DNA of 64,000 nucleotides from Schmidtea nova (Eukaryota), in assembly GCA_044892505.1 (NCBI GenBank), contig CM097882.1:96038001-96102000 (forward strand), given 5' to 3'. Position 1 is the stretch's first letter. Each line of letters starts with the position of its first letter. The notes beneath the pieces are model-generated. The model saw only the letters and a list, made by a program, of their open reading frames with translations, ran no database searches and was not told the DNA's origin. Positions 1 to 64,000 of this stretch are shown here, one piece after another. A program made the translations under genes and the position numbers.

Positions 1-2
1 CA

Positions 3-401
3 GACAAACCAGTTAAATCAAAGAAAGCTATTTTGAAGCCAGTTCAAATATATCATGGCCATAAAATGTATTTTTTGGTTAGTGAAATAGATTTCAGTCT
101 TTCAAATCCTGTTAAATTGAGTAAGACTCAATATTCAAATCTTTATGGAACTATATCGAAAGAAGATGTATTATCTCTCAATAAAGTTTTGAATCAGATC
201 AATAAGAAATTATGTTGCAATGAAAACATAGTCATTAATAATCGGCAAACCAAATTCTTCGATTCATTTGAAGAGATTCAATTAATTGATAATGAAAGCT
301 GGTATATTAACATTACAATTCAAGGGTATAAACTTGATTTGAATGATGTTATGACTCCAATTTGGAGAGTCAACAATGCCAGAATATCTCATGGATTTTG
401 A
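3..401 (+). CDS. Maverick accessory protein, 5'-truncated by the window edge; homolog of the spliced gene at 61691-62220; possible OB-fold ssDNA-binding protein
   Basis: Frame open from base 3. Aligns by eye with the 62 kb gene (PVQ...PVxL..xQY...G.I, and the C-terminal YxIxIxxQGxK...PIWxV). The SSB assignment is inference only. Confidence 0.6.
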   Translation, partial: DKPVKSKKAILKPVQIYHGHKMYFLVSEIDFSLSNPVKLSKTQYSNLYGTISKEDVLSLNKVLNQINKKLCCNENIVINNRQTKFFDSFEEIQLIDNESWYINITIQGYKLDLNDVMTPIWRVNNARISHGF

Positions 402-463
402 TTTAATATATATTTTGTTATTTGAAAATGTCTTTTCGTTTTGTGTCAAGTTTTATTTGTGTA

Positions 464-466
<3 letters not shown>

Positions 467-527
<61 letters not shown>
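467..527. repeat. (TTA)n microsatellite
   Basis: Direct reading of about 20 TTA units. Confidence 0.95.
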
Positions 528-529
<2 letters not shown>

Positions 530-550
530 ACCTATGTAAAGATTAGAAAA

Positions 551-621: not shown

Positions 622-1673
622 CCAGGGCAACTGTATAATTATTCCGTAATATATACAGTCTAGGAATAAAAAGCTTGACCCCGTGTCCTCACTATCCCCT
701 ACTCTCCCGTTTTTTCTTTTTTCTTTATTTGTGCCTCAAATTGAAATTATTCGTTTTTTTCGCTGTAACAATGTATAGACAGAATTTTATTCTCTACAAA
801 ATGGCCAACTTGAAAATTCAAAATGTTGTGTTTTGTGAGCTGCACACGTGTTTTGTTGTTATTAATTGGTTTTCTTTGATGTTGTAATAAAGATAATGAG
901 TTTACATATTAACAGTGTATATTTAGAATTTAATTTCCTATAAAATGGCTTAAATAAAAATATAAAATTAGTCATTTTTCGTGTTGCACACATGTTTTAT
1001 TGATATTTTTGAACAATTTAAAATAATATTTTAGAGTTTTCAATATATGTATAAATTTTCCACTAAATTGTTTGATTAGAAATTTAAAAATTATCGTGTT
1101 ACACATGGGTTTTGTTGTAAATAATTGATTTTATTTGATACTTTAATTGTATTTTCACTGTAACAATTTATATTCTAATTCTCTACAATAATGCATTATG
1201 TAAAAACTAATAACTTTGTGAATAATTAGTTTACTTTTAATTAATTTTTATTTTTATTAATTAATTTTTATTTCAATTAATTTACAATTTATCGAATAAT
1301 TAAATATTTTTTTTTTAATTTTAATTACTTGTAATAATTTTTATAATTTATTAGTGTAATTTAATTTTAAAATTAATCTTAATTTATTACATTGTATTTT
1401 AAAAATAATTGATATTTATCATTAATTGATGACATATATTTATAACAATAAAATGTGTTCAATAATTTTACAAAATTTAATTGTAGAAATAAATTACACT
1501 GTGGTATTTACAAACGTGTGTGTATGTTTCCTCGAATTTGATTGGTTAAAAATTGTTGAATTTAGTATATAAGCAATAGTTTTTCATTTAAGAATCACTT
1601 TTTATTGCAACCTAAATTTGGTAAATTAATTTTTGTTTTAAAATTTTTAAATAATCAACTTATTTTAGATAAA

Positions 1674-1839
1674 ATGAACAATACCAACAATAATATGGAT
1701 ATTACCAAGAACAACGATTTCAACAACGATGTCGACAACAATATGAACAACGTTATTGATGACAATGTTGAAGCATCTGAAACAATGGATAGTTTAATGA
1801 AAAATAAACTTAACGATGAAAAGAGAAAAGAAAGTAACT
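1674..1839 (+). CDS. Predicted first coding exon of E1 pPolB (Asn/Asp/Met-rich)
   Basis: ATG at 1674 follows a 48-nt GT..AG 5'UTR intron (1621-1668). Ends at a phase-1 T|GTAAGT donor (1840), in phase with the acceptor at 2624-2625. Upstream GATTGG and TATATAA boxes at about 1540-1572. Confidence 0.6.
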
Positions 1840-2625
1840 GTAAGTGTCGATTTATTTAATGATTGCAATTTATAATTAATTACCTTTTGTAAATAAAATT
1901 AATTAAAATTAATTAATAATTAGTTTTCTTTATCGATCTTTGTAATCTAATAATTAATCATTATTTATTATTCAATAAGATTTGTAATATTTATGACAAG
2001 TTAATAAATACTAATGACAACTTAAAATAATTAACTGTATTATTTAAGTTATTAATTATTTTTTAATTAATTTTGTAGTGTTTACTAATTTTTGAAAATT
2101 ATTTACAATTTTTGAATTTGAATTTTTATTTTATAATTAATTATTAAAACAATTCTAGTTTTAATTATAATTATTCTAATTTTTTTATAATATTAAATTA
2201 ATTAATTTGAATATAAAATTAATTTGAATATTGAATAATATTATTTATTGCTTATTTTTTATAATTTTCTAGTAATTAAAGTTTTTATAAATTAATTTTT
2301 AATAAATAACTTATTTTCTATCATAGTAAATAAAATATTCTATATGAAAATTATTATATTAAATTAATATTTTTATATTACTTGTAAATAATTTAAATTT
2401 TACATCTTTGAGTAAAACTAATTATTAAAACAATTCTAATTAAGAATATAATAATTGAAATTAATTAATATTATTTTTCATAATATTTAAATTATTTAAT
2501 TAAATTTTTATTATTGTAATTATTAATTAATTTATATTAATTATTGTATAATGATATTAATTTTAATATTAAAATACTTGACATTTATTGTGCAAATTTT
2601 TAATTATTATTATTATTTTTTTAAG

Positions 2626-5600
2626 GTACTCTTTATCCAAAATATTGTAATGAATCGAACCACAGTATTAACTGTCACAATACTATGAGAAAATATTATA
2701 AATTGACGCTTTGTGGACAGAAATATTATGTTTGCCCAATATGTCAAACATTCGAATCTATATCCTATACTAAGTTTTATGATCGTCATAGTGATCATTT
2801 AAATATTTTCAAAAATACCAAACAATCTATTATGAGAAATATTGTTAAAAGGAAAGCATTGGTTTCACAAGACTCAAGACCTACTAAAATAAGAAAAGAA
2901 ACAATCTCTGAAAATCTTTCAAAATACCATGAAGATAACCTTATGTTTGGAGAAGGTGTAAATGTTTCTCAAATTAATGATGAACCTGAGATAGAATATG
3001 ATTTAAAAATGTCTCACCAATTTATCAAAATGAATATTTCAAGATATAATGTCAGGGAAATAGAATTGCCAAATTCGTTGTTGGATAAATTAAAAATAGC
3101 CATATCTAAAATGAAACAATCAAAAATTCAATTTGGTATTCAAGCAGAACTTGAAAAGGAAGGAGAAAATCAAATTGTATGCTTATCCAATCGCGCTGTC
3201 TATATTAATCCAACTTTTCTTGACGAAGGCATTAAAAGGTTAAATGAAAAAATTGAGTTATTGACTCATTTAGGAAGTGGATGGATATTAACTCGGATTT
3301 TAGAAGTAAATTTTAAAGTGGTAAAGGTCTCCAATATCTCAAGATTATCGGGGCATAGTAAATTATTTACTCCTAAAGGATTAATTGGTAAAAAAGCTAT
3401 TGTCAATGTTCAGAATTCAGATGATTTGTGTTTCATCTATAGTATTTTATCAATATTGAAATATGATGAAATCAAAGAACATAGAGATAGACCCACAAAA
3501 TATTTACCATATGTGTCAGAACTAGTATTTGATTATGGTGATATGCCTATGAAACTGTGTGATATCCCAACCTTTGAACGAAAAAATCCTGGTTTGGCAG
3601 TCAATGTGTTAACTTATAATGATAATCAGTTATCTGATATGGATAATGTTGTAATGAAACACCCGTATTTGGATATAATTCATCGATCAAAAGTCATAGA
3701 TGGGAAGCAGATTTACTTATTATTGTTAGAAAATAAAGATCACTTTCATTATACTGCAGTAATTAACATCGATCGTTTGATGAATTGCCATAAAAGCGTA
3801 GATTGTAGTGTTCAGATCTGTTGCAAGTGGTGTAAAAATTGTTTGAATGGATTCAGAAAGAAAAAGGCTTTTGAAAAGCATCAAGCATTGTGCAAGAAAA
3901 ATCAATTGGGTACAACTTTATATACTATGCCAATAGATAAAAATTTGGAATTCAAAAACTGGTCAAAGATAATAACACCTCCATTTGTTATTTATGCAGA
4001 TTTTGAGTCGATTTTACCCAAAGATGACACTTATTTTCAAAAACATTTACCAATTTCAGGCGGACTCTTATTAATCAACAATTTTACCGGAATATCAAGT
4101 TATTATCAATTTGTAGGTGATGATTGTGTTTATCAATTTTTGAAGAAAGTAAAGATTATAGCAACAGAAATTGTTCTTCCATATTACATCAAAGAAGGGA
4201 AAAAGCCAATGTCACCACTTTCGCCAGATGAAAACCAATCATTTGAAAATTCAACAATTTGTTACTTGTGCATGAAACAGATAATAGAAAAGGTCAGAGA
4301 TCACGATCATTTTACAGGAAAATATATGGGTTCCGCATGTAATAAATGTAATATTTCAAGGAAAATTAATGAAATATTGCCCGTTGTGTTTCACAATTTG
4401 AAGGGTTATGATTTACACCATATCCTTAAGCATGGGTTAAATCGTTTTCCGGATTGGAATTTAAGCTGTATTCCTCTTACAACTGAAAAGTTTTTATCGC
4501 TTATTGCATACATCGGTGGAATTTCAATTAAATTTATTGATTCTTATCAGTTTGTCAATGACTCCTTAGCTAAAGCCATCAAAACATTGAACCACTTAGC
4601 CATTACAAAATCAGAATTTAATGGGATTATAGTAGAATCAAAAGGAATATTTCCATATAACTTTGCCACTAGTCAAGAAGTTCTGGAAACCACAAAAGAA
4701 TTACCCCCAATCTGGGATGGGGTTTCAAAAGAAGAATATGAAAAAGCCCAACATATATGGAAAGAAACACGTTGTGAAACATTGATGGATTATCAGTTAA
4801 TTTATTTGAAACTAGACGTGTTTCTATTGGCTGATTTCTTTCAACAGTTTCGAGCCAAATCTATAGCTCATAATCGATTGGAACCATTGAACTTTTATGG
4901 AATCCCTGGAATGTCTTGGGCATCATCACTTATGACTTTAGATGAACCAATTGAACTGATACGAGAAATGGAAATGTTTAATTTTTATGAAGGAGGAATT
5001 CGTGGTGGCCTTACTTTTGTGAACAAACATTATGTTAAATCAAATGCAACTACAGAGCTATTGTACATAGATATCAATAACCTTTATGGATGGGCTTTAA
5101 GTCAAAGCTTGCCGTGTGGAGACTTTAGTTGGATTCATTCAGATCTAGATAAAATCTTAGACGAATGCAAGAATTTAGAATTAGAAACGCTTCCGTATGG
5201 CTATACCGTAGAAGTTGATTTAGAGATCTCTTCAGAAATTCATGATTTCTTGGATGATCTACCTGTAGCAGCAGATAAGATGTGTGCTCCAGGATCTAAA
5301 GTAGAAAAGTTAATGTTGACACACTATCCAAAGAAAAATTATGTAATTCATTGGCGGTTACTTCAAATGTTTTTATCATTAGGTGTAAAAGTAATCAATA
5401 TACATAGAGCTGTTAAATTTAAACAGGCTGCTATTTTCAAGAAGTATATTGATGCAAATACTAAGTTAAGAGCTGAGTCGAATAATAGTCTCGATAAGAA
5501 TTATTATAAGCTTTTAAATAATAGTCTGTACGGAAAAACAGTCGAAAATTTGAAGAAAAGAATGAATTTGAGATTATGTAATACTGAACAGAAAATGATA

Positions 5601-6317
5601 ACATATGCTTCCAAGCCAACTTTTCAAAGAAGTATCAAGATTGATGATGATTTAATAGCTGCCTTACTAAATAAAGACTCTATTTGTTTGGATAGACCCA
5701 GCTACATTGATCAAACTGTACTGGATTTATCTAAACTTAGGATGTATCAGTTACAATATCTGGAGTTAGCTAAATATCGAGCACAATTCGGTTGCGAAAT
5801 AAATATTGTTGTTGGAGATACCGATAGTTTTTTCTTGGAATGTAAAAATGTTAAATTAGATACATTATTACTGGCAATGGTTAATGACAATCTCTTGGAT
5901 ACGTCTAATTATCCTTCGGAACATCCACTCTTTTCCAGAAAATTCGATTCAGTTATCGGAAAGTTCAAGGATGAAAGTAAAGGCGATGGATATAAAGAAT
6001 GGGTCTTTTTAAGACCAAAATGTTACAGTTTGTTAGGGGAAAAAGAGTGCATTAAAGCTAAGAGTATAACATTGAAGGATACTAAACTGAATCATCAGTC
6101 GTACCTGGATTGTTATAATAACAGCAAAAGGTTTATAGTACCACAATGTCGAATTGGTACACAAAATCATCAATTATTTAGTTTCCAGCAGTCGAAAGTT
6201 GCTTTAACAAATGCCGATGATAAAAAAATTTGGATTGAAAAGAATAAAAGTCATGCATATGGGTACTATGGTGATGAAAGAAAAATGAAAACAATTTACG
6301 AAGAAAATAGTTTATAA
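2626..6317 (+). CDS. polB: Protein-primed family B DNA polymerase (Maverick pPolB), main exon; ORF intact
   Basis: Exo motifs YADFES, FHNLKGYD, YLKLDV; polymerase motifs YIDINNLYGWA, KLLNNSLYGK, GDTDS; EndoVII-like DHDHFTGKYMGSACNKCN; OTU-like VQNSDDLCF...HFHY region. The reading frame is open 59 nt upstream of the ATG at 2685, back to a splice acceptor. Confidence 0.97.
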
Positions 6318-6777
6318 AGAAATTTTGTTATGATTAATAAAAATAATTAGAAAATGTCTTAGTTTTTATTATGTTTAAATGAAATTTATAATATTTTTTT
6401 TCTTGTAATCTGGATACTCAAGATTATTATTAATATATATATATATATATATATTTTGTGAGTGTTTATTTATTAGTGATTTAAAACGAGTTTTTAGTAT
6501 TATTTAAACAAAAGACTTTATTAACCTATTGGTAATATAAAACTAATAAGTAGTTAAAGCATTGTGCCAAAATTTTAACTAAATATATTTTAAGATTTAA
6601 ACCTACTTTATCTTCCAAAATCTCCGTCAATCAATTGAAAATAAAAGTTATTTTGAAATCCCCACCAACTTTTATTTATACAAAATATTTAGAAAACCAC
6701 TTTTGTTTAAACACACTAATTATTCTATACGTACTATACATAATTAAAAGTCAATATAATGTTCTTTTACACACATT

Positions 6778-7000
6778 TAATTACCGCCAAAGTTCATGTA
6801 TACACACCTAATTCCCACCAAAGTCCATGTACACACACCTAATTCCCACCAAAGTCCGTGTACACACACACTTTATTACCACCAAAGTACATGTACACAC
6901 ACAATTTATTACCATCAAAGTTGGTTTACACACACCTAATTACCATCAAAGTTGGTTTACACACACCTAATTATCACCAAAGTTTATTTACGCACACTAT
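6778..7000. repeat. Subterminal tandem repeats of the Maverick TIR (about 31-bp unit, about 7 degenerate copies)
   Basis: Repeated AATT(C/A)CCACCAAAGT..ATGTACACACAC units between pPolB and the terminus. Confidence 0.8.
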
Positions 7001-7100
7001 AATCATTCGATCGTAAATGTTAGGAGGGAAGGGGGGGGGTAAGTGGTCTAGATGTGACAAATCACACTACTAATGGTGATTCCTTAGTAGCAGCATTAAG

Positions 7101-16607: not shown

Positions 16608-18822
16608 GTGCATAAAAAAACAAAGATAATGACTAGACCCATCCCAAACTTCTTTATGAACGAAAATGGCTCTATACAAGCATGGTTAAAACTAACCAAA
16701 TTTACATTATCTTTGAGCGGTATAACCACACCAATACTAATATGCTCGCAAATATTAACGACACTCCCAAGCAATATACGCAAAACATTTGCCGATCAAA
16801 TAGACAAGATCTTCAATAGCAACAACTTATTTGAAAAGCTGTGCAGCATAATAGCAAATATTAATATATCAAATAAAAAACAAACACTAGAATCCTTCCC
16901 TAAAATAACTTGCAAATAAATGATACCTAAATTAATTTCACAAAAACAGAATTTGGAGTACGTCGAAGCAAAAATAGCAAACTTTGACTCAAACGAGCAA
17001 AGAATAGAGCAAAAGTTAGCATCTGAAAGTAAAATGTTGACCGACATTATCGATAAAATAAATGCAGGAACTTACCATAGTAAAAACAGTACTCTTGACA
17101 ACAAAAATAAAACATCCAACCATGAACAAAATGAGGAGGAAAATGAAAGAACAAAATTTAGCGAAACAAATAAAATTCTTAGTATTTTAATAAGTCAACT
17201 TTACAAAATAGCAACGGAAAACAAAAGGTTCAAATTAGAACTGAATGAAATTAAAGAAAATAACTTATAACAAAATTGTGGTCCAAATCAAACAGCGTAT
17301 AGGCTCAATAGGATAAAGCCAAACTCAGGAAATCAACACCAAAACTTTTACAACAATAAAAACAAAGAAACTGGAAATAAACAAAAATTCTGGAAACCAG
17401 AAATCAGATTATCAAACCAAGAATAATGTTACTTCCATAACAAATTTCGAGAAAAGGCATTCAAATGCACAAAACCATGCAGATATAACGAAAACAACTC
17501 AGAAAAATTGAAAAGTTTGCCATTAGTTGCTCCTACTTTCGACGAAACAAACACAGAAAAACTGGAAAAATTGCCAGTAGTCGCACCCACATTTGGTGAC
17601 AAAACAATACATTTATGGTGCACTCAAATAACACAGAATTCCTAATTGACACAGGTTCTGTGATCTCCTTATTACCCCCATTACCTGCACAAAAACTCAA
17701 AAAACGCAGAAAAACATTTAACTGCAGCCAATGACACAAAAATAAAAACATTTGGCAAACACACCTTAACTCTAACAATTAATTCAAAGAAATACAGCTG
17801 GACATTCATAATCGCTGATGTTCAACAGTCCATAATAGGAGCTGACTTTCTGGCACACTACAACCTCACAGTAGACTGCCGAAATAAAACACTAATGGAA
17901 AACACAAACACGAACAGAGAAACCTTTAAAACCATGGCGACAACCGATTCAAAAGTTGACATTGGTGTTATCCGAATGGGTCCAACTAACAATAAATCAA
18001 AACAAAAACTGAATCATGGCCCAGAAATAAATACTCTATTGGAAAAATTCGAAAAACACATCGAACCATTAACCTTCGACAAAAACGCGAATCACTCAAC
18101 CGAACATGCAATTATAACAAACGGAAACCCAGTGCATGCAAAGGTGAGACAACTAGATCCACAAAAAAGAAAAATTACAAACGAAATTTTCAGAGTTACT
18201 AGAAAACAAAATAGTAACTCACTCGAACTCAGAATGGTCCTCTGCGCTCATGCTAAAACAAAAGGCAAACGGAGAATGGAGAGTCTGTGGTGACTACTGA
18301 ATGCTCAACAAAATCACAGAACAGACAACTACCCACTGCCTATCATCAGGGACATAATAAACAGACTAAAAGGAGCAAGACTTTTCTCGGAAATAAATTT
18401 ACAAAAGGCTTATCACCAAATACCCATCAGGAACGAAGACATTAAAAAACACCAATCGTAACACCAATCGGCATGTTTCAATACAACAGAATGCCATTTG
18501 GTTTGCGAAATGCAGCCGTAACAATTCAACTCTTTATGGACAAGACTCTGAAAAACAATCAGAACACCATAGCATATCTGGACGACATACTCACAGCAAG
18601 TCAAAACAAAAAACTCATTTAAAAGACATAGAAATGGTGTTTGAAACGCTGAACTCAGCAAATCTCAAAAAACATTCAAAAATGTGAATTTTTGAAAAAA
18701 GAAATAAATTTTCTTGGACACACACTGGATGAAAAAGGCACAAAGTCAATAGACAAGAAAATAAGCACAATACAAGAGTTTAAACTGCCAAACACAAACA
18801 GAGAGCTAAGACGATTTTTGGG
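16608..18822 (+). pseudogene. Gypsy gag-pol remnant (gag-like, aspartic protease, reverse transcriptase; RNase H and integrase deleted)
   Basis: FLIDTGSVISLLP (protease, about 17640); GEWRVCGDY, DNYPLP, AYHQIP, MPFGLRNA, YLDDIL (RT). Ends at ELRRFLG. Many frameshifts. Confidence 0.92.
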
Positions 18823-19361: not shown

Positions 19362-22268
19362 TAGGGATTGCATATTCGAAATTCGAGAATTCGAGAATTC
19401 CGGAATTCGTTTTCATAAATAGTTTCAAATTTCGAAAAGTTCCCAGCGAATTCCGAATTTAAAATTTATTTTTTTGTGCTATCTCCAACTTGTAAATTGT
19501 GTTTTAGTTCTGTACATATTAATATTCTACATTCTATAAGAAGACATAAAGAAGACAATGCAAAATTACAGTTATTCTACATAATACAAGTAGGCATAGA
19601 GAAAACATTTCTAAATTGCAGCTAAACATTTAAACGATTTCATTTCTTCATTTCATATCCATATGTAATAATAATAAATGTAATGTAGCATAAAATTTCA
19701 CACAACATTTTATATTTCGTATAACTTCGTGTTCGTGTCTTATATTTACGATTTGCAATAGTGTTGAGATTTGTTTAATCGAGTATAGTGTATATTGAAA
19801 TATTTGGACATTGATTTCTGTACAATCATCAATATTTTTTAAATAGGTAAGTAAACAATAGCAGTTTTAATTTAATAACATTGGCAGTTTTAATTTAATA
19901 ATTAAATTATTTTTATTAGAATATCCCAAAATGTCATCAAAAGAAATTTATTCGGAATACACAAAGCAATATAAAAATCAAAATTCTGTTTGGATTCATT
20001 TTTTGAGAGGATCAAAAAAACTAACAGCAAAATGTAAAATATGTAATGAAATAGTAACAACTTCTGGTTCAACGACAACACCGCAGCACACGCATTTAAG
20101 AACAATACATAATATTAATGTATTAAAACGTGATTTCGTGCAAGATAAAGTTCCAGAAAGCAACTCATCAAAAATGATGATTACAAATTACTTTGTCAAC
20201 AAAAAAGATGAACAACTTTCTGCAATTGTATCACAAATGTGTGTGCCTTGGATAATATGCCATTCAAAATTTTTTGTACGTCTATCGATTTGAGAAATTT
20301 ATTTTTGGCTAGAGGCGCTCGAGATTATGTACTACCAAAATCACCTAACTCAATTCGCAAAATGGTTTAAGAATGCGCACAAAAAATGCGTGCTAAAATG
20401 ATGCAGGATTTAATTAATTTCAAAGAAGATGGAACACGATTTTGCTAAAATATAGATGAATGGACATCATCAAGAAACCGATGTTATTTAAATGTGAATG
20501 TCCATGGCAAGAAACAGTTTTGGAATTTAGGTTTAGTTCGTGTTGAAGGACGTTTCCCTGCAGAGAAATGCATTACGGCCCTGAAAACCACATTACAAGA
20601 CAACAATCTAAATATCGATAAAGATATTACGTTCATAACAATTGATGGGGCAGCTGTCATGCAAAAAGTTGGGCGGCTTTTACTATGTAATCAACAGTTG
20701 TGCTTTGCACACGCGATACATTTAGCTGTAGTTAATGTTCTGTGTAATAATTCGAATACAACTGATGAATTGGTGGCTCATACAGATACAGAAAATGTTA
20801 GTGTAGAAGAACAAGGAAGTGACTTCGAGAAATCAGAGGATGAGGAATACATTGATGATGAAAGTGTTGGCTTGATTGAACAAATTTATATTGAAGCTGA
20901 GCATGTTGAGACTGAAGAATTTGGATTTGGTTTTCTCATCAAAAAAGTTCGTTCGATTGTAAAGAAATTTCGTTTTTCGAGAACATCGAATGATATTCTT
21001 CAAATATACGTGAAACAAGAATTTGGAAAAGAGTTGAAACTTATTATGGACACTAGAACTAGATGGAATAGCTTAGTCGAAATGCTTGAAAGATTTAACC
21101 AACTAAAAAGCTGTGTTAGAAAGGCATTGATTGACATTGCGTCTGATATCGTTATTCTAGATGCTGAAATTTTCTCGATTAACAACATGATCTCGGCACT
21201 TCTCCCAGTGAAGCTTACTGTTGACGCCCTTTGTCGAGAAGATGCAAATCTGCTTTCTGCTGATGCGGCATTGTCTTTTATGCTTGAGAATTTTGGATCT
21301 GATGAACTTTCACTAAAATTGAAGAACGAATTAGAAAACCCAAAAACCCAAAGGCGAACAAATGTGTCTGGAACTCTTCAGTATTTACACAATGGCGAAT
21401 CTTTCACTAGACCATTGAAAAATACAATAGCCAAAGTTATTGAAAGCTTTGCACAAAGATTAATATTTAACACTAACATGGAAACTTCCTCAGGCGAGCA
21501 GGTAGAAGCTGAAGATGTGGAAGAAGTGATGTCGGAAGAACAAACCAATCCCCAGTCGTTAATGCAAAAGTTGCAGAACAAAATTCAATTGAATTTATCG
21601 TCTAACATACCTTCCAGCAAAACTCAACAAACAACAAATCGGAGCTTAATTTCACAAATTAAATCTGAAATGAAATTCTTTGAAGAAAACGGCGTTCGTG
21701 GCAAAATATTAGAGTCTGTCTACTCATTTTTTATTTTGATTCCGCCATCGAGCGTGGAGTCCGAGCGAGCCTTCTCAATTGCAGGTAACTTTTGTACAAA
21801 AGTTCGATCGAGACTCGGAGACACATCTTTAAGTGATCTCTGCTTCCTTAAAGCATATTTTAGGCAAACACAAGAATAATTTTATATTTTTTATTGTTAA
21901 ATGATATGCCATATTAGAATGTTTCTGTACTAATTGAATTTTTGTACAATAATTTTATGTTTATATAACATTTTAAATAATATATTTTTACCTATTATTA
22001 TATTGTTATGTAATAATTGAATTTATGTACAATACATTTATGTTTATATTTCATTTTGAATGATATAATTTTATGTTCCATTTTTTATTTTAAAAAAAGT
22101 AATATTATGCAATAAATAACAATAAATTATCTCAAATAAGTTATTTTTATTATTTGTATAAACTTTAAAAAATTAACAATATTTCGGAATTCGATCGAAT
22201 TCCGAAATATTTAACTTGCGAATTTCGAATTCCGATTTTTTTATTTTCCTCGACATTTGCAATCCCTA
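19362..22268 (+). mobile_element. hAT DNA transposon, full length
   Basis: 11-bp TIR TAGGGATTGCA/TGCAATCCCTA; perfect 8-bp TSD ATTACAAC (19354-19361 and 22269-22276); TTCGAA/AATTCG subterminal repeats. Confidence 0.95.
19931..21879 (+). pseudogene. hAT transposase with a BED zinc finger, frame-disrupted
   Basis: VWIHF..AKCKIC..HLRTIH (BED); IDEWTS, TIDGAAVM, CFAHAIHL, TRWNS; PPSSVESERAFS (hAT dimerisation domain). Frameshift and stops at about 20230-20490. Confidence 0.92.
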
Positions 22269-28608: not shown

Positions 28609-31310
28609 CCCTTTAAAAACTAAAACCGTTTACAAACGACCATCATAAAAACACCATTCAATTCAAATCAAAACATTTTCGCGTTCCAACCAGTAAGACC
28701 GTTTTTCGACTGTAAAACTCACCACCACAACTTGCAGGTTTGAACACGATCAAACACATGGTTTGCTTGTAACGGTCAGTTTGGTTGAGAACTTCTGAAT
28801 TGGAAGCCGTTAATAATATTTCGTGATTACACGCAAATTAAAATTAAAAAATAGTTATAATTCCATAGCTCCATCGACTTTTGTAAATTTTTTGTTCTTA
28901 TTTTTTTGATAATAAATTTTTAGTTTCAATTTTTTTTTATATTTTTGTGTTCGAAATGAGAATTTTGTAAACACCTACAAGCGATGTTAGTTGTTAGGCC
29001 GAAAAAAATTCCTGATATTTTACCATTATGCAATTTTATCTTCATCTATTTTTATATACTTTTAGGGTTATTTTGTAAATTTTTGTATAATTTTTTGATT
29101 TCAGAAAATGTCAGGATTCGATAAACATAAAAAGTTCCAATTTTCCTTAATGACTGACAAAAAAATTAAAGAATTACTGAATTCAGATAAAACTGACGAT
29201 GAATCTGATTTTGATGATGATTTTGAAGATCCAGATTATCATTGTGATGAACTTCAACCTGAAAAAAAACATTGATAAAATTGATATTGTAGGTAAACTG
29301 GCTGTAGCTCCGCTCTTTACTGAGGTTCAAGAACTATCAACAGAAACAACAACGTCAACGCCACAGGATGTTGTTACAGTTCCAGAAGGAAAAAAGTCAT
29401 TTAAGCCTAAGAAAAGAGCTCGATCACCATTTCCAAGCATAGAAGCTTCAGGATGACATGTAATACCATTATCTGGTGGATTCACTTGATATAGTTTAGC
29501 GAATATTGACAAGGAATCAAAAGAGTTCAAAGAAATATGATGGCGTAAAAAGTGCATTCAGTAGAGGAAATATAGATTTGCCCTCTGAAGTGAAAAAATT
29601 GCAAACACCGTTGCATTTTTTAATTATTTTTTTATCGAAGATTTATTGGAGTTGATAAGTTCAGAAACCCAGCAAGCTGCAACTGAAGAAAACGTCGACG
29701 CACAGTTTAAAATTGACAAATACGGAATTTCTCGATACATTGGAGTTTTGATTTTTATGTCAGTTTTCCGTTATCCAAACACAGAAGATCACTGGAGTGA
29801 ATTCGGGTTTCGACACATACCGGCGTCGATGTAAAAAAATAGATTTGAGCAGATTAAAAATATTTATCGTTTAACGATGAATCAAAACGTATAAAAAAGG
29901 GTAATATAGGATATGATCCCAATTTTCGAATCAGAAAAATTGCGACTTTGATTCTATCCCGAAAAATGCTCGCTTATCCATTGATGAGCAAATGTGTTCA
30001 ACAAAAATGGTTCACCATTTACGCCAGTTTTTACCGGATAAACCCCATAAATGGTGCGTAAAGATATTTGTCATGTGTGATAGCAATGGTTATTCATACC
30101 GCTTCGAAATATATGCTGGAGCCAAAAATGATGACATTATTATACCTGATACACCAGACATTGGAGCAACAGAAAATATTGTTATCAGGTTGACTCAAAC
30201 AGTGCCAAATTTTGTGAATCATATATTGTATTTTGACAATTTCTATACTTCTCTGCCGTTTATGGTGTATCTCAGGACACGTGGCATTTATTCCTTTGGG
30301 ACTGTGAGAGCTAACCGCATTCCTAACTGTAAACTTCCAACTATGAACAGCAAAGAATTAAAAAAAGCACCTCCAGGTTATTCGACGGAATTCATTGGAT
30401 CAGCTTACGGTGTCAATATTGTCACAGTTTCGTGGAAAAATACGAAGAATGTACAACTGTGCTCAGCCTACGTCGGCACAAAGCCTTTCCTAAGACTTAA
30501 TACAGAGAATCAACAATCAAAAATAGCCCGATACAATAGAAAACAAAAATCATATAATGAAATTGATTGTCCATGAATTATCCGAGAGTACAACGCCTAT
30601 ATGGGCGGTGTCGATTTCATGGATTCTTTTATCGGTCGCAATGGACTTAAAATTAAAACCCAGAACATGGCAACCAGAATATTCTACCATCTTCTGGATA
30701 TGGGCATAACAAATGTGTTTGTTTTGTACAGAAGACTGAACGCTGAAAAGAACCAAACTGCATATAGTAACGATAAATTAAAAGACATGACAATGAGGGA
30801 ATTTCGCGTGAGTATTGCAAAAGAGCTTTGTGTTTCTGTAGAAAAACGCACAGTTGGCCGTCCATCTACTCAACCAATTTCCAGTAATTGTGTTGGTAAA
30901 AAAGCAGTTCACCCAGTGGCAAATGTAAGATTCGATGAGATTAATCATTTTCCGGAATGGAGGTCAAAAAAATTTTGCAAATACTGCAAGAAATCAGATA
31001 CCCACACATTTTGCATCAAATATAACTTGCATTTATGTTTTTCCAAAGTTAAAAATTGTTTTAAATTATATCATAATGCTTATTATATCATAAAAAACAT
31101 TAATTTCTTTTACATATGCTCATAGTTTTATTTTTTTTATCGTAACCCACTAAGACTGTCTACAAACGGTCTTTCATTTTTCTCACCTGACGCTCTTAGG
31201 TAAGTAAATTCCAAATAAACTTCACATTCATGTATTTTTGTCTATAGTTATACTAAAACAAAAATTATTATGACAAAATTCCTCGTAATTCTATTTCAGT
31301 GGTTTAAGGG
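28609..31310 (+). mobile_element. piggyBac DNA transposon, full length and decayed
   Basis: TTAA TSDs at 28605-28608 and 31311-31314; CCCTT... and ...AAGGG imperfect TIRs. Confidence 0.92.
29108..31125 (+). pseudogene. piggyBac transposase, with multiple frameshifts and stops
   Basis: Catalytic motifs SIDEQM, YFDNFYTS, MGGVDFMD; C-terminal Cys-rich CKYCKKSDTHTFCIKYNLHLC. Confidence 0.93.
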
Positions 31311-46070: not shown

Positions 46071-46449
46071 TTATAACATTGATTTCAACCATGCAAGGCA
46101 ATGTTCACCACAAGTGATTGTTAAAGGATGTTGATACCGAATTATATTATACACAATAGGTTTACCAATAGTTTGAAGTTTTCGAACAAGTAAATTTGGA
46201 TAATAATATCCAAAGGGATCAAATACATGTATTCGATCTGGTTTCACGTAAACTGCAGTCCAATGTTCACCGCCCAATGTAGATGTCTGAGTATTTACAA
46301 TGATGGCTTGATTCATTTTCAAATAAGGTATTTTATCTAGCGAAAATACTCCAATAAATTGATTTCCCAATAGTTTTTTACCTTGATGTAATACCTGAAT
46401 AGAACTAATTAAAAATAAATAATTAATCAATTAAAAAATCTTACTCCAT
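46071..46449 (-). CDS. Adenain-like cysteine protease, spliced (ATG GA micro-exon; 40-nt intron at 46405-46444)
   Basis: GGEHW, HVFDPFG and CGEHC catalytic motifs; the spliced start reads MDSIQVLH. Confidence 0.92.
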
Positions 46450-48410: not shown

Positions 48411-49353
48411 GATTCTAAATATTGTCGGTGGAGGAATAACTTGTAATTCTTGTAGGTAGAATTTGCCGCTGATTATATTGTTATCAGAGTCACAAATAGT
48501 ATACATGACAGGATTCTGCACTGTGTTGACTTTCGATATTTGATATATCTCATCACTCCAATTATTATCAAAATTTTTAATGAATGGCGATGCACTAATC
48601 TTGCTAATTCGAACATGATCACCAATTTTATATTTTGGTTTCTTTATTTTCGTATCACTCAAAATATTTTCAGTATCTACTACTTCTACTGGTTTCCTGC
48701 TATTTATACCCCGATGAGCACTATGATTATAACTGTGAATCATTTCAGGTAAAACATTAATCCAGGTTTTATTGCCTTTAAAAACAAAGTATTTTTTCAA
48801 TCGATCACGTAAAGTTCGATTAAATCTTTCGACATGAGCTGCTTTGAATTGCGAGAATACCGAATAATGATTTATTCTCTTGATAACTTTCTTGACTTTA
48901 CTGTTGTAAAATTCCTTTCCTAAAAAATATTAAATATATATATATAAATTTATATTTAAATTTACCCAAATCGGTTTGTAAATTAGTTGGCCGATCCTTT
49001 TTCATCATTGTCTTGATAGCGATTGCCATGTCATTAGCAGATTTAGATTTTACTCCAATTGCTCGAGCAAATCTACTGTAAACATCAATACATGTTAAAA
49101 TATACTTGTATCCCTTGTTAATAGCAGAATACGGAATCATTTCCATCAAATCCATTTGCCACAAATCATTGATTCTATATGTTTTATATGCTCGAGTTGG
49201 AAACCGTTTCAACATCGGCTTGTTTAGACTGTATGCAAGTTGCCCCGATAACCAACTTTGTGTCTGTTGTTTCGACTTCTGTGCTTTTTTCCTTAGCTTT
49301 TCGACTCCACCGAAACCGGCGTCATCTTTTTAGTTCGTCCAGATCTTCTACAT
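48411..49353 (-). pseudogene. Retroviral-like (rve) integrase with a 46-nt intron (48920-48965), early stops, chromodomain deleted
   Basis: WQMDL, QTDLG|KEFYN (restored by splicing), HVERFNRTL. Confidence 0.92.
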
Positions 49354-50553: not shown

Positions 50554-50645
50554 ATTTCAAAATTATATTTAATTAATATTATTGTTTATATTTGTTTTAA
50601 ATACTGGTTCTCAAAGTAATTTTTCATTTAAAAATATTTTCAGTA

Positions 50646-51113
50646 ATGATTAGAAACATTAATTACAAGGGTAAGACATATGTATCACACATGAAATTTC
50701 CAAATGGAAAACCCCAGCAAATTGTAGATAGAAGTGGAAAATACCCAATAATATACTTTAAAACAGGAAGATATAGAATAATGGGATGCAGGGAATTTAT
50801 TAGTGACGAACAAGTTGAGTTTTACGATTTAAAAATACAATCGATAACTGTAACTGCGGATTTAGGATTTATTTGTAATTTGAATGAATTATCTAAATTA
50901 ATACCATGTGTTTACGAGCCAGAAATATTTCCAGCTTTGAGATATATCAAATATAATCCCATGTGTGTAAATATATTTGCAAGGGGGAAATTAGTCATAT
51001 TAGGATTAAAAAACAAAGACTATTCAACTATAGTTGATGATATTATTTACGATATAAAATCAATTATAGAAGATAAAGCCTTTGTTGATTTCATACTAAC
51101 ATGTGACTCATGA
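50646..51113 (+). CDS. TATA-binding protein (TBP)-like protein, 155 aa, intact copy
   Basis: Second TBP repeat: LKIQSITVTADLG...VYEPEIFPALRY...VNIFARGKLVILG (cf. YEPELFPGL..LIFVSGKVVLTG). Shortened first repeat: IRNINY...KFPNG...IIYFKTGRYRIMG. Recognised from motifs only. Confidence 0.82.
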   Translation: MIRNINYKGKTYVSHMKFPNGKPQQIVDRSGKYPIIYFKTGRYRIMGCREFISDEQVEFYDLKIQSITVTADLGFICNLNELSKLIPCVYEPEIFPALRYIKYNPMCVNIFARGKLVILGLKNKDYSTIVDDIIYDIKSIIEDKAFVDFILTCDS

Positions 51114-51376
51114 CTGCAATATCGATGCAGTAGAAATGCACGATTCTGATTGGTTCTGTGTGTATTTCGAGAATAAAGACATGTTGTGCATGCTTGAATC
51201 TGATTGGTTCATTATGTGTGTTTCAAATCATGTGTGTTTCTTTCATATATATACTATGAACAATCTGACATAGTTTATATCTACAATTATGTCTCTAACA
51301 CAAACTTTGATTAAAAGCCGTAAGGATTTTAATTATTTATTATTCATAATTAATATTTTTTTTATTTAGAAAAATA

Positions 51377-51790
51377 ATGAATGTAATATACAGAAAATTG
51401 GAGGAGCTTTTCCCGAACCTCATGCCGGCTCTCGTGTACACAGCTCCGGAGATGTTCCCGTACAAGATCATGATCTTGACGGGAATCGATATTAACCAGA
51501 TCGTCCTGGACCATATGACGAATCAAAATACGGATATACCCGCTGTGGCAGAGCACATTCTATGTGCATACCAATGTGGAAGCTGTGTCGAACGTATCCG
51601 GCAATTCAATATATGGGTTTTGAGAAACTCGCTCAAATTATTCGATACCGAACAACAACAACTGGAAAAAGTTGAGGAGGAGGAGGAGGAGCAAATAAAG
51701 GAAACCTGTGTGTTTCTTTCATATATATACTATGAACAATCTGACATAGTTTATATCTACAATTATGTCTCTAACACAAACTTTGATTAA
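51377..51790 (+). CDS. Unknown Maverick protein downstream of the TBP-like gene; C-terminus probably created by the duplication junction
   Basis: RKLEELFP.L...L.Y.APE...KI...TGI.I.Q..H shared with 53332-53720; preceded by a GT..AG 5'UTR intron-like segment. Confidence 0.65.
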   Translation: MNVIYRKLEELFPNLMPALVYTAPEMFPYKIMILTGIDINQIVLDHMTNQNTDIPAVAEHILCAYQCGSCVERIRQFNIWVLRNSLKLFDTEQQQLEKVEEEEEEQIKETCVFLSYIYYEQSDIVYIYNYVSNTNFD

Positions 51791-51852
51791 AAGCCGTAAG
51801 GATTTTAATTATTTATTATTCATAATTAATATTTTTTTTATTTAGAAAAATA

Positions 51853-52266
51853 ATGAATGTAATATACAGAAAATTGGAGGAGCTTTTCCCGAACCTCATG
51901 CCGGCTCTCGTGTACACAGCTCCGGAGATGTTCCCGTACAAGATCATGATCTTGACGGGAATCGATATTAACCAGATCGTCCTGGACCATATGACGAATC
52001 AAAATACGGATATACCCGCTGTGGCAGAGCACATTCTATGTGCATACCAATGTGGAAGCTGTGTCGAACGTATCCGGCAATTCAATATATGGGTTTTGAG
52101 AAACTCGCTCAAATTATTCGATACCGAACAACAACAACTGGAAAAAGTTGAGGAGGAGGAGGAGGAGCCAATAAAGGAAACCTGTGTGTTTCTTTCATAT
52201 ATATACTATGAACAATCTGACATAGTTTATATCTACAATTATGTCTCTAACACAAACTTTGATTAA
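51853..52266 (+). CDS. Second tandem copy of the same unknown protein
   Basis: Part of the 476-bp duplication. Confidence 0.55.
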   Translation: MNVIYRKLEELFPNLMPALVYTAPEMFPYKIMILTGIDINQIVLDHMTNQNTDIPAVAEHILCAYQCGSCVERIRQFNIWVLRNSLKLFDTEQQQLEKVEEEEEEPIKETCVFLSYIYYEQSDIVYIYNYVSNTNFD

Positions 52267-55513: not shown

Positions 55514-56601
55514 ATGAAGAAAATCATGAAGAATATAAAAACGATATGGACAAACCCAAAAGATCCCGATGGTTTTGGTTCAGTCAAAAAATTGGCAAAA
55601 AGAATAAAAAGTTCAAAGAATGAAACTCAGAAATGGTTATCTGATCAATTGGCATATAGTTTAAATAAAGCAATGTTGAAAAGATTTCCTACACGGAAAT
55701 ATAAAACTTTTGGGGGTAACGATTTATGGCAAATGGATTTGATGGAAATGATTCCTTATTCTAAAATTAACAAGGGTTACAAATATATTTTGACTTGTAT
55801 TGATGTTTTTAGCCGTTATGCACGAGCTATTCCAACAAAAACTAAATCTGCTAATGAAATGGCTGAGGCTATTGAATCTTTATTTAAAGATGGGAAGCCA
55901 CGTAATTTACAAACTGATTTGGGTAAGAAATTAAATTAAATTTTTTTAATTATTTAATTTTAATTTAGGAAGAGTTTTATAACAGCAAAGTAAAAGAAGT
56001 GATCAAAGGAATCAATCATTATTCTGTATTTTCTCAATTCAAAGCTGCTCATGTTGAAAGATTTAATCGAACTTTAAGAGATCGTTTGAAAAAGTATTTT
56101 GTGTATCAAGGTAACAAAACATGGATAAATGTTTTACCGAAAATTATTTCCAGTTACAATCGTTCACCGCATTCGGGATTAAATAAAATGAAACCTATCG
56201 ATGTATATTCAAATAATAATTTTGATGGATGGATAAAAGATAGATTAAAATCAATTAATAAAAAACCGAAATATAAAGTAGGCGATTATATGAGAATGAG
56301 TAAAATCAGTGCTTCTCCCTTCATCAAAAATTTTGATAGTAATTGGAGTGATGAAGTATATCAAATCTCAAATGTTGATACTAATCAAAATCCAGTCATG
56401 TATACTATTTCCGATCATGAAAACAATGTAATCGAGGGTAAATTCTACGAACAAGAACTTCAAGTTATTCCAGCTCCCACAGTTTTAAGAATTCAAAAGA
56501 TTTTAAAAACCAAAACTGATGGGAAATATAAACAATATTACGTTAAATGGCATGGCTATGAAACTCCAAGTTGGATATCTGAAAAACAATTGATTAAATA
56601 A
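55514..56601 (+). CDS. Retroviral-like integrase with a C-terminal chromodomain; 46-nt intron at 55923-55968 and an apparent 2-nt deletion just after it
   Basis: WQMDL, QTDLG, HVERFNRTL; chromodomain QYYVKWHGYETPSW. The intron matches element A in position and length. Confidence 0.92.
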
Positions 56602-56606
56602 ATATT

Positions 56607-60333: not shown

Positions 60334-60712
60334 ATGAAGTAAGATTTATTTTAAATAATTAAATTTTATTGATTTTAGTTCAATTCAGGTAGATCAGATT
60401 GCTAGAAAATTAATTGGATCGGAATTTCTAGGAGTTTTTCCTCTAGATAAAATACCGTATATAGATGTGAATAAAGCATTGATTGTCAATACTCAATCAT
60501 CAAACCTCAAAGGTGAACATTGGCTTGCAATTTATAATAAACCCGATAAAATATACGTGTTTGATCCAATGGGATTTTATTATCCACCGATATTGTTGAA
60601 AAAATTATCGTCAATGTTAAAACCAATAGAATATAACAGAATTCGATATCAAAATCCAATGACAAAAACCTGTGGGCAACATTGTTTAGCTTGGCTAAAA
60701 TATATGAAATAA
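60334..60712 (+). CDS. Adenain-like cysteine protease, spliced (ATG AA micro-exon; 40-nt intron at 60339-60378)
   Basis: The spliced start reads MNSIQVDQIARKLIG..GVFPLD; KGEHW, VFDPMG and CGQHC catalytic motifs. Confidence 0.93.
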
Positions 60713-61035: not shown

Positions 61036-61162
61036 TTAAATTATATTTAAAATAATTTCGTTTAAATAAACGACATTTTTAACAACAAGCCAACTTAAGT
61101 AAGTAAGTTTAATTTTTTATGAATATTTTTTAATTTATTTTTTTTTTACAGATTTTTAAATA

Positions 61163-61367
61163 ATGACAACAAAGAAAATTATACCAAACAATATTATGTC
61201 AAAGAAAATTATGCCAAACAATATTATGTCAAAGAAAATTATGCCAAACAATGTTATGCCAATGAAAATTATGCCAAACAATGTTATGCCAATGAAAATT
61301 ATGCCAAACAATGTTATGCCAATGAAATTTTCAAAGAAAATTATACCATCGATACTTCATGTTAAAT
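61163..61367 (+). CDS. Predicted first coding exon of element B pPolB, with 30-bp repeats (KIMPNNVMPM)
   Basis: Follows a 53-nt GT..AG 5'UTR intron (61099-61151); ends at a phase-1 T|GTAAGT donor (61368), in phase with the acceptor at 62420-62421. Confidence 0.6.
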
Positions 61368-61690
61368 GTAAGTATTTATATATTGACGAAATTAAATGTT
61401 TATTTTTTATAATTGATAGATTTTTATATAATATGAATTTAATTAATGTTAGATTTTTATATAATATGAATTTAATTAATGATAGATTTTTATATAATAT
61501 GAATTTAATTAATATTCGATAGATTTTTATATGAATTTAATTAATAATTGATAGATTTTTATATGGATTTAAATAATTTTTTATAATAAATATATTTTAT
61601 AAATGATATATTTTTAAAATATATTTATTGTAAAATAAGAAAAAATCAATTTTAAAAAACAAATAAAGAACAAATAAATTAAACAAGAGT

Positions 61691-62220
61691 TTATTCATGA
61701 AAATCAGTAATTTTCCAAATAGGTTTTATCCCGTTTTCGGTTTGTTTAAATCCTTGTAAGATAATTTGAATTTGATACATTGAATTTTCATCTAATTTGT
61801 CTAAATCTGTTTCTTTTTTACAGTTCATATATGTGAATTCCTCGTTGAATTGAATATCTTTATTTATTAGCATTAAAATTTCTGATAGATTCTTTCTGTC
61901 AATTTCCCCGATTTTTCCAACCTGAATATTGTATTGACATTGTTTCAATGTAACAGGTTCCTGTAAATAATATTAATTTGATTTTTATAATATTTTAATT
62001 GATTACTTTAAATGAATATTTGATCGGGTATTTCAAATACTCCATCGAGTATTGTAGAAATTGAACTGGTGGATTCAATGCCAAATTAGATGAAGAAATA
62101 GGATTTTCCTCAAGAATAATCTTCATTATTTCTTGTTTTGTCATTCTTTTCGATTCTAGAAAAAATAAATTAAAAAATAATCATTTAAAATTAATTAATC
62201 TTACTTTTCAGTTGATACAT
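61691..62220 (-). CDS. Three-exon Maverick accessory gene (62220-62205, 62155-62007, 61960-61691; 144 aa), possible OB-fold SSB
   Basis: Two canonical GT..AG introns (49 and 46 nt) give one open frame homologous to 3-401; upstream GATTGG, and TATAAAC 37 nt before the ATG. Confidence 0.75.
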
Positions 62221-62421
62221 TTTTTAATGATTATTTTAATTTTATAAGTCGTTTATATAGAAATTTTTAAATTATTTTGACCAATCATAATCAATAAATA
62301 TATATTACGATATTTTGATTTGAATGTGTGTATACACACTTGATATACATCATTGATATTTTATCTTAATTTTTATCATAATTTTTTATCATAATTCTTA
62401 TATTATTTTTTAAATTTATAG

Positions 62422-64000
62422 GCAATTTATATCAAAAATATTGAAACTCCACAATTCATGATGTAAAATGCCATGAATTAATGGAAAAATATTATGCATA
62501 CCCTCATAATTGTAAAACCTACTACATTTGTCCTTTTTGTAAATCTACTTCGTCCTCTTCGTATATTGACTTTTACAATACTCATTGCGATCATTTAGAC
62601 CAATTTAAAACATCTAAAAAATCAATTTTTAAATTACCGCTTAAAAGAAAATGTAATGAAAATAATCCAATCCCAGTCAAAATTAACAAGTCAGTTCTTT
62701 CTGATGATATTTCTTCAGTTGTTCCTCCAATTGTTCATTCAATTGTTCCTTCAGTTAATCCTTTAATTGTTCATTCGGTTGTTCCTTCAGATATAGTTGT
62801 AATTTCTGATGATGATGATAACATTCTTGGTAATGATATCATTCTTGATGATAACATTCTTGGTAATGATACCATTCCTGATGATAACATTCTTGATAAT
62901 GATACCATTCCTGATGATAGCATTCTTGATATAAATAATCTTTCTGATTTTGTGGTTGTAGACACTTTTGATCCTATCGATAATATTCAAATTGGTGGTT
63001 CTTTTGATAAAATTTGTGACGATAAATACTCTTTAGTTCCTGAAGTACAGGTTGGTGGCTCCATTTTACCAGTTGTTAAATTTGATTTAAATAAATCACA
63101 TGCTATAGTGAAAATGATTGTAACTAACTTGAATTTAAAAAGCATGTTTGTACCTGATAATTTAATTAATAAATTAAATAATGTAATTGAAACGATGGGA
63201 ACGGTTAAAATTCAATTTTGCATCGAAGTTGAGTTTGAAAAAGATGGTGCTTTTCAAACTATAGTTATTTCTAACTCTGCAAAACCTGTCACAGATACCT
63301 TTATAGACGATGGCATTAATATTCTTAATGAAAAAATTACATTAATTAATAATAGAGGCAGTAACTGGATAATTAATAAAATTAATGAAATCCATTTCAT
63401 ATTAACCAAATTTTCTGAGATTAGTAGGTTAATAGGTTACGGTGGTATTGACACTCCTGAATCTTTAAAGTCAAAACATTGTGTTGTAAATGTTCAGAAT
63501 TGTGATGACTTGTGCTTTATCTATTCTGTTTTGGTAATTATTAAATATGATGAGATATCTGGTCGTAAAAATAAACATAGGATCAGTAATTACAATCTTT
63601 CAGATGTTAACTTTAGTCCTTCTGATTTGCCTATTCGTCTTTGCAATATCCCAAAGTTTGAAGCTAAAAACCCGGGATATGCGATTAACGTACTTTCATA
63701 TGATGAATCTGGAATTCTAGACACTAAGCCTGAAGTTTTCAAACATCCGTGTATTGACATAATTCATAGGTCGAAAGTAGTAGACGGAATTCCTATTAAC
63801 TTGATTCTTTTGCAAAATGGTGACTCTTTTCATTATATAGCAGTAACCAATCTTGATAGGCTTTTAAATCTTGACAATAAATTAATATCTGGTACTCGTA
63901 TTCAAAGTATATGGTGCCATCGGTGCTTGAATGGGTTTAGATATCAAGATTCATTTGTTCGTCATCAAGAGTTGTGTTCTAAAAATCAATTAGGCACAAC
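62422..64000 (+). CDS. polB: pPolB of element B, N-terminal part (open to the window end; in-frame TGA at 62442-62444, ATG at 62481); absent from the ORF track
   Basis: MEKYY..YYICPFC, KIQFCIEVEFEK, VNVQNCDDLCFIYS, KNPGYAINVL, IIHRSKVVDG, WCHRCLNGF, LCSKNQLGT align with the 2685 ORF. 33-bp repeats at about 62815-62930. Confidence 0.93.

Follow-up and report, generated by a model that had tools for sequence, protein, structure and literature searches.

Polintons (Mavericks) carry the protein-primed polymerase gene pPolB, and two divergent copies of it in a stretch of Schmidtea nova DNA raise the question of where the encoded protein begins. The stretch, hereafter the window, covers 64,000 nt of contig CM097882.1 (assembly GCA_044892505.1, positions 96,038,001 to 96,102,000 of the forward strand) and is embedded in a 1.25-Gb genome. 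An earlier note on these letters had claimed that the 19 codons preceding the apparent start codon align without gaps between the two copies, here called E1 and B, and that a low-complexity exon further upstream, ending T/GTAAGT in phase 1, is spliced to them and restores a Cys codon. We compared the two copies. The alignment holds, the donors, acceptors, ATG codons and short introns are all present where the note had placed them, and in both E1 and B the exon T joins a GT or GC of the long exon to give a Cys codon. See Table 1 for the gene models. The first coding exon of E1 (30% G+C) measures 166 nt from its ATG, which is phase 1, ends AACT/GTAAGT and is without a Pfam match; that of B measures 205 nt from its ATG, also phase 1, and ends AAAT/GTAAGT. 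The DNA has the GT donor, T-rich tract, AG acceptor and continuous frame of spliceosomal GT-AG introns. Overall, splicing of pPolB is the best explanation of the locus, and we give it a probability of about 0.9.

Acceptor, frame and split Cys codon

Further copies, whose comparison the earlier note had proposed as a check, were collected by searching with the start of the long exon. The queries of families E and B, and of three more families located close by, C, D and F, each gave at least 150 scored matches, and a sixth search yielded family H plus a decayed family G (L144-L158), which was left out of the counts and has TTCAG at the acceptor in most copies. The acceptor itself was in no query. 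Between the six families, the N-terminal segments are 33–65% identical. Of 127 loci, 124 have an AG exactly 2 nt 5' of the codon that comes first in the alignment (E 30/30, B 29/30, C 20/20, D 18/20, F 20/20, H 7/7). AG takes up 1.9% of positions in the AT-rich intron sequence, and conservation of the acceptor is not chance. Loci were the top matches ranked by identity, and in many cases two E loci are opposite arms of a single palindrome; the copies are therefore not independent, and the six families are the stronger unit. In the unspliced frame, every one of the six families has a stop 1–14 codons 5' of the acceptor with no intervening ATG; therefore, the conserved codons are unreadable unless spliced. 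The codons before the internal Met are stop-free in E, C, D and F by selection, as they were part of those queries, and the first seven B codons lay outside the B query. The in-frame stop at 62442-62444 is specific to the window's B copy: none of 30 other B loci carries a stop in these codons, and we reject it as a family trait or a case of recoding.

The B exon was scored blind to phase, from the first ATG past the short intron to the last donor ahead of the acceptor, with the frame ignored. Twenty-nine of 30 loci were scorable, and all 29 exons have a length of 1 mod 3 (phase 1) and contain no stop. Their lengths take 18 distinct values between 115 and 244 nt, whereas the last-intron lengths are spread 10/10/9 over the three residues mod 3. 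Eighteen lengths in one frame against evenly spread introns are far from chance, though the copies are related. The 15-nt repeat of this exon was considered as the sole cause of the constraint and rejected, since the lengths fall into four classes mod 15, all of them 1 mod 3.

All six families have between one and five low-complexity coding exons upstream, the last one always ending T/GT in phase 1, and every long exon starts with GT or GC. The gene structure is wider than first noted, with three to five upstream coding exons in three families and with other core genes spliced as well, as judged from their sequences. The leader exons measure 46, 63, 90, 75 and 105 nt in family C and 52, 66 and 150 nt in H, all phase 1, and 3, 60, 60, 60 and 112 nt in D, with phase 0 up to the last; two D copies missing one 60-nt exon remain in frame. 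Family F has a single 79-nt coding exon behind a first exon that is homologous to that of E1, differs from it by an insertion or deletion and holds no ATG. Leader exons are 23–36% G+C, compared with 8–11% in the short introns (41–56 nt), and the last intron runs from 312 to 1966 nt next to these short neighbours, with weaker GTTAG donors in C and H. CCAAT-like and TATA-like motifs lie 5' of the first exon in E, C, D and H, the CCAAT-like motif of E1 recurring 5' of a TATA in C, D, H and metagenome contig L167, and F has a TATA.

By their sequences, leader exons arise by tandem duplication of an exon together with its intron. The start codon of family D is the final triplet of its first exon. 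The D leader has two near-identical 60-nt exons, and a motif is repeated in two exons of C (L093-L111, L073). In copies L074-L090 of family C, the last intron has gone from ~690 to 1390 nt through (ATT)n growth with both splice sites kept. E copy L012 has an ATG immediately 5' of the 48-nt intron that reads into the leader in frame with or without removal of this intron; other copies have TTG or CTG at that place.

A profile built on long-exon codons 1–80 from five families was then searched against 1.84 billion protein representatives and gave 58 homologous proteins. Setting aside 22 without the full downstream motif (mostly later starts) and one that starts too close, 35 could be scored. A Cys lies 5–7 residues before the second Cys in 35/35, and in 15 the distance is exactly 7, the offset of the split codon. 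Many of the 58 begin M-x-C or M-x-x-C, and metagenome contigs L166, L167 and L169 encode an M-x-x-C start in one piece; in L167, GATTGG and TATA motifs again precede it. Sixteen of the 58 matches continue into pPolB-like sequence. For the terminal-protein/vOTU region, a midpoint-rooted tree of 25 rows, with P0033 dropped and H left out, places E, B, C, D and F together with P0001-P0005 (97/97) and the contiguous relatives outside this group. The simplest reading is probably a single intron gain within the Cys codon before the families split, with free leader growth afterward. Among viral contigs, we found no relative with two alignments.

Contig L169 (L169:1590-1740 and 1850-2250), which comes from another source, reads M-N-C-K in one piece and has its own 44-nt phase-1 intron within the module, as well as several intron-like stretches of ~45 nt in the linker. 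Its Cys-Lys codons are spelled TGTAAGT, as are the E and B donors. The last-intron donor may have grown out of Cys-Lys codons, though TGTAAGT is also the optimal donor.

The frame constraint across copies, the recurrence in six families and the Cys of the contiguous homologues all back the claim of a spliced pPolB with a hidden upstream exon. Several points weigh against it. Splice sites, phase, frame constraint, Cys, domain boundaries and further introns are read from DNA, and the junctions are predicted ones. Only the B test was blind: for the multi-exon models, one copy per family was first annotated by eye, and the loci were then scored against patterns made for each site. The whole model is kept in 20/30 loci of E, 12/20 of D, 4/5 of F and 5/7 of H but in only 5/20 of C, where the last donor is found in 18/20 and most leaders extend past the 1.5-kb loci; the remaining failures come from mutation or rearrangement of the copy, or from sites outside the scoring patterns. 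The leaders of different families cannot be aligned to each other, family C has an additional Met at codon 9 of the long exon, and no clear CCAAT or TATA was found in the promoter region of B pPolB.

The Cys/His module and the encoded protein

In E1, the segment completed by splicing has the pattern C-x6-C-x4-H-x3-C ... C-P-x-C-x14-H-x2-H, with ligands invariant in the five aligned families. Its general form is C-x5/6-C-x4/6-H-x1/5-C, ~19 residues and C-x2-C-x11/15-H-x2-H, giving eight ligands in ~60 residues. The strict motif is present in 27/58 matches, with two or three copies in 6/58, and the module is a unit of its own because tandem copies occur. What the earlier note had called a Cys/His-rich N-terminal segment is a self-contained, repeated domain. 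With tandem copies and varied partner domains, it is also a mobile one. In P0011, P0025, P0041-P0044, P0039 and P0066, it forms tandem arrays, adjoins classic C2H2 fingers or precedes a DUF5917 protein.

The second half shares C-x2-C ... H-x2-H, and a predicted hairpin followed by a helix, with C2H2 zinc fingers. Unlike these fingers, it has a longer spacing (14 residues), a preceding C-x5/6-C-x4-H-x2/5-C site and no Pfam or fold match. The predicted model of P0017, an 85-residue homologue, has a mean predicted local distance difference test score (pLDDT) of 83.6 and consists of a helix, three strands and a helix. Pfam gave no family on window 2628-2867. A fold search with the P0017 model reached a best Z of 2.4 in 48161 chains, a value that decides neither for a new fold nor for a difference, and a viral fold search with the same model gave no match at E<=0.001. 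A profile search of solved structures gave a single match (E 0.22), which we disregarded, and the first match in a structure atlas (0.80) is an unnamed protein and a lead only.

Judging from the ligands, the module quite likely binds two zinc ions. The eight residues could instead form another cofactor site or a disulfide-free structural domain, as neither a Pfam family nor a fold match names the module. We consider this unlikely given eight conserved Cys/His in two clusters, the C-x2-C ... H-x2-H motif with its hairpin-helix model and the classic C2H2 fingers that several matches carry alongside.

Farther along the protein, Ser217, Trp219, Cys268 and His374 are invariant columns, and the Ser, Cys and His were checked at the motif level in 11 pPolB sequences. 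Their positions suggest the terminal protein and vOTU described in passages of 10.1101/2024.03.18.585575. The PF03175 polymerase was identified on the C-terminal 805 amino acids (window 3900-6314; E=4e-32), a match missed by the full-length scan.

From these features we infer splicing in vivo, zinc binding, vOTU cleavage and a role of the module in end recognition or partner binding, which may fit together as follows. These Polintons would have host-type RNA polymerase II promoters, be transcribed in the nucleus and rely on the host spliceosome. In the pPolB mRNA, 1–5 short exons coding for a variable low-complexity leader would be joined to a single long exon. The last intron, common to all families, was probably gained once in their ancestor, inside the codon for the first Cys of the module. 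Only the spliced mRNA would give the whole module, and a start at the internal Met would miss the entire first site. The predicted product runs leader, Cys/His module, variable linker, terminal protein, vOTU, exonuclease and polymerase. In the likeliest case, two zinc ions are bound by the module, which vOTU cleavage leaves on the terminal-protein half; leader and module would remain on the DNA-end-bound protein if the vOTU cuts behind the terminal protein, as passages of 10.1101/2024.03.18.585575 propose. There, the module could help the terminal-protein half to grip the DNA ends of the element or a partner protein, integrase for instance. The leader would be a loosely constrained, disordered tail growing by repeat and exon duplication.

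Introns are reported to shield DNA from the silencing of intronless sequence in human cells (PMC8770142). Any regulatory or anti-silencing purpose of the introns described here is a tentative and rather unlikely suggestion. Equally speculative, and in our view doubtful, is a wider scenario in which an animal Polinton clade has become intron-dependent: host-style introns would have been gained repeatedly in polymerase, integrase, protease and accessory genes, at different sites per host (L169 having its own), as a mark of "self" against the silencing of foreign DNA without introns, allowing the elements to build up hundreds of near-identical copies, with one intron gating an undescribed two-zinc, end-recognising domain and one family reduced to self-replicating, polymerase-only palindromes that borrow integrase.

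Alternative readings and related systems

Splicing might be regulated, with retention or skipping of the last intron yielding a short form that starts at the internal Met and lacks the first metal site. The invariance of this Met in five aligned families, the length of the last intron, its weaker donors in C and H and the antisense gene with its own promoter motifs inside the last intron of both B and F all point this way. However, the Met is also present in contiguous homologues and so may be structural, retained introns of 10% G+C would be rich in stops and upstream ATGs, and no alternative sites are conserved. We regard such regulation as decidedly unlikely, and we say the same of its use to toggle the element between replication-competent and other states, or to choose between pPolB and the antisense gene nested in the intron.

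It is highly improbable that pPolB is unspliced and starts at the internal Met, the upstream open reading frame (ORF) being a separate small gene and the 19 codons a relic. Passages of published papers do call Maverick core genes intronless, the junctions come from DNA, and 7/58 library matches as well as P0001/P0002 begin exactly at the internal Met. Those starts are gene-caller output on DNA, and they bear out the truncation by ORF-only calling that the earlier note had claimed. Moreover, the Leu, Tyr, Cys and His codons before the Met are kept over families 33–65% identical though untranslatable without splicing, and a separate ORF has no cause to stop one base into a codon at the donor in 29/29 copies. 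Spliced-leader trans-splicing is found in several invertebrate phyla, with some leaders ending in AUG, and the host genome is AT-rich and animal-like, but it is barely credible that the acceptor receives such a leader in place of a cis exon, since an AUG-ending leader (rejected for its wrong phase) joins in phase 0, leaving the long exon out of frame and no T for the Cys codon, and any leader leaves the frame constraint on the cis exons and their upstream promoter motifs unexplained.

By their sequences, the B and E elements are Maverick/Polinton elements, having the PF03175 polymerase, an integrase (absent from the polymerase-only palindromes of family E, see below), an ATPase and a protease. 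According to passages of 10.1101/2024.03.18.585575 and PMC8502044, pPolB of Maverick/Polinton (adintovirus Alpha-type) elements combines terminal protein, vOTU and PF03175 polymerase. The present genes agree in the Ser in a Gly-rich loop, the Cys/His pair where terminal protein and vOTU are expected, the ATPase, integrase and adenovirus-like protease neighbours, the AGTAGT ends and the 6-bp target duplications. They differ in being spliced and in the extra Cys/His module and low-complexity leader ahead of the terminal-protein region. The words zinc, intron and splic are absent from the text of 10.1101/2024.03.18.585575. Intact vertebrate Mavericks are reported without introns in passages of PMC8097293, in agreement with Kapitonov and Jurka 2006, and nematode core genes are called intronless in those of 10.1101/2022.07.12.499685. 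Nor is a spliced pPolB mentioned in passages of 10.1101/2023.08.22.554363, PMC8502044, PMC5718144 and PMC6431247. We found no description of a spliced Polinton pPolB in the literature searched, though Repbase, supplements and older papers outside that scope may annotate such exons.

By analogy, adenovirus E2B works alike, with no sign of a shared intron origin. Its upstream exon contributes only about three residues. Passages of PMC11304566 and PMC7851563 describe a protein-primed replication gene with short 5' exons spliced to one long coding exon, as here, and PMC11304566 adds that pTP is spliced from two exons and truncated in ORF-based predictions. In adenovirus, pTP and polymerase come from separate mRNAs with shared 5' exons, whereas the Polinton gene encodes one polyprotein, has leaders of 26–126 codons and places its junction inside a metal-ligand codon. 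Dinoflagellate polinton-like elements also have spliceosomal introns, which passages of PMC11957031 attribute to recent insertions of intron-making transposons; the introns here are instead fixed, position-conserved and frame-constrained, and the families that carry them run to hundreds of near-identical copies.

Surveys of Polintons keep only intact single ORFs and take pPolB to begin at its first Met. If the splicing reading is true, they miss or mis-score a clade of abundant elements, lose a conserved N-terminal domain and mistake real introns for decay. Host-type promoters, together with introns in every key gene, argue for nuclear expression by the host's machinery, which bears on the question of Polinton replication. 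Five young families with at least 150 matches each are available in this genome for direct tests of start sites, junctions and the function of the module.

The elements around pPolB

Introns are predicted elsewhere in the elements. The integrase intron (44–46 nt, phase 1) occupies one site in five elements, and the protease intron (39–40 nt, phase 2) follows a 5-nt coding exon in four. These and the introns of the nested antisense gene fit the frame and span 39–49 nt. Such predicted splicing across the whole element suggests nuclear expression by host machinery. With predicted introns in pPolB, integrase and protease, these elements depart from the intronless core genes described for Maverick/Polinton, a reported trait and not a defining one. 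In element B, the second integrase exon has an rve_3 match at E=5e-4, below the cut-off, and a chromodomain; Pox_A32 (packaging ATPase, E=7e-7) and Peptidase_C5 (adenovirus-like protease, E=2e-5) were also identified, and a 409-amino acid ORF at 59053-60282, placed where a further Maverick/Polinton gene is expected, has no Pfam match.

Table 1. Predicted features of the pPolB genes and of other spliced genes in the window (UTR, untranslated region)
Feature	Position	Strand	Remarks
CCAAT-box-like motif GATTGGTT	1540..1547	+	E1 pPolB promoter; putative function
TATA-like box	1566..1573	+	E1 promoter; homologous stretch in family F; initiator-like TCACTT at 1595, putative start site
E1 non-coding first exon	1595..1620	+	putative 5' end; homologous to family F first exon
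E1 5'UTR intron	1621..1668	+	48 nt, 10% G+C; donor GTAAAT here, GTAAGT in most other copies
E1 first coding exon	1669..1839	+	ATG 1674; 55 Asn-rich codons + T of split Cys codon
E1 last intron	1840..2625	+	786 nt, phase 1, splits first Cys codon; 624-789 nt in other E copies
E1 long exon	2626..6317	+	open for 1229 codons; AG acceptor ends 2625
Cys/His module	2626..2798	+	probable two-zinc domain; first Cys completed by splicing
Terminal-protein-like and vOTU-like regions	2985..3782	+	approximate limits; invariant alignment columns; names from passages of 10.1101/2024.03.18.585575
E1 element right end, ACTACT	7066..7071	+	shared with palindromic E copies, which have a 6-bp target duplication
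B 5'UTR intron	61099..61151	+	53 nt, 11% G+C; second GT at 61103 would make 49 nt
B first coding exon	61152..61367	+	ATG 61163; 68 codons of 15-nt repeats + T
B last intron	61368..62421	+	1054 nt, phase 1; contains antisense gene
B long exon	62422..64000	+	extends beyond window; in-frame stop 62442-62444 breaks this copy
Small antisense gene nested in B intron	61703..62220	-	own CCAAT/TATA; related to ORF at window 3-401
Nested antisense gene, introns	62204-62156, 62006-61961	-	49 nt, 46 nt
Integrase intron, element B	55923..55968	+	46 nt, phase 1; same site in four other elements
Integrase intron, middle element	48920..48965	-	46 nt, phase 1
Protease intron, element B	60339..60378	+	40 nt, phase 2; after 5-nt coding micro-exon (ATG + two bases); same site in F and H
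Protease intron, middle element	46405..46444	-	40 nt, phase 2; gene start

Family E consists largely of pPolB-only palindromes of ~13 kb, formed by two head-to-head 6.4-kb arms that are >99% identical and retain the promoter and upstream exons (L034-L035, L038-L039, L214-L217, L224, L226). Among the 150 E matches listed there are 48 divergent pairs <10 kb apart, and the two palindromes examined closely have AGTAGT...ACTACT ends and 6-bp target duplications. Nine further E regions that we opened included two palindromes, and some others adjoin gene blocks. The palindromes likely derive from snap-back replication products still able to integrate, the alternative being an assembly artefact. No description of polymerase-only Polinton palindromes was found in the literature searched.

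Window 711-7071 corresponds to one arm of an E palindrome, and no left end of E1 was found in the window. The genes to its left (window 1-530, L031) share 98.8% identity with an element of family D that has its own pPolB 8 kb upstream, on the opposite strand; by sequence, E1 is a palindrome arm attached to a D-element gene block. In L227 and L231, different gene blocks lie next to an E-type pPolB. Inverted ends of ~660 nt flank one B copy.

Other genes in the window were also noted. A TBP-like protein (PF00352) is encoded at 53723-54205 on the minus strand (E=2e-15) and at 50601-51113 on the plus strand (E=2e-12), and it may serve the elements' own TATA-bearing promoters. A small ORF at 55101-55451 matches adenovirus core protein X (PF05829, E=1.5e-5, at the cut-off). 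Two tandem paralogues, 44% identical, occupy the minor-capsid position of B (56598-58659), where family D has one copy, and a small Cys-containing gene of the middle element is present in three tandem 476-bp copies (51226-52477). Between the Polintons lie decayed ORFs that we take to be retroelement protease-like, hAT-like and piggyBac-like (17664-18293, 19871-21879, 29917-31125 and 40900-43103).

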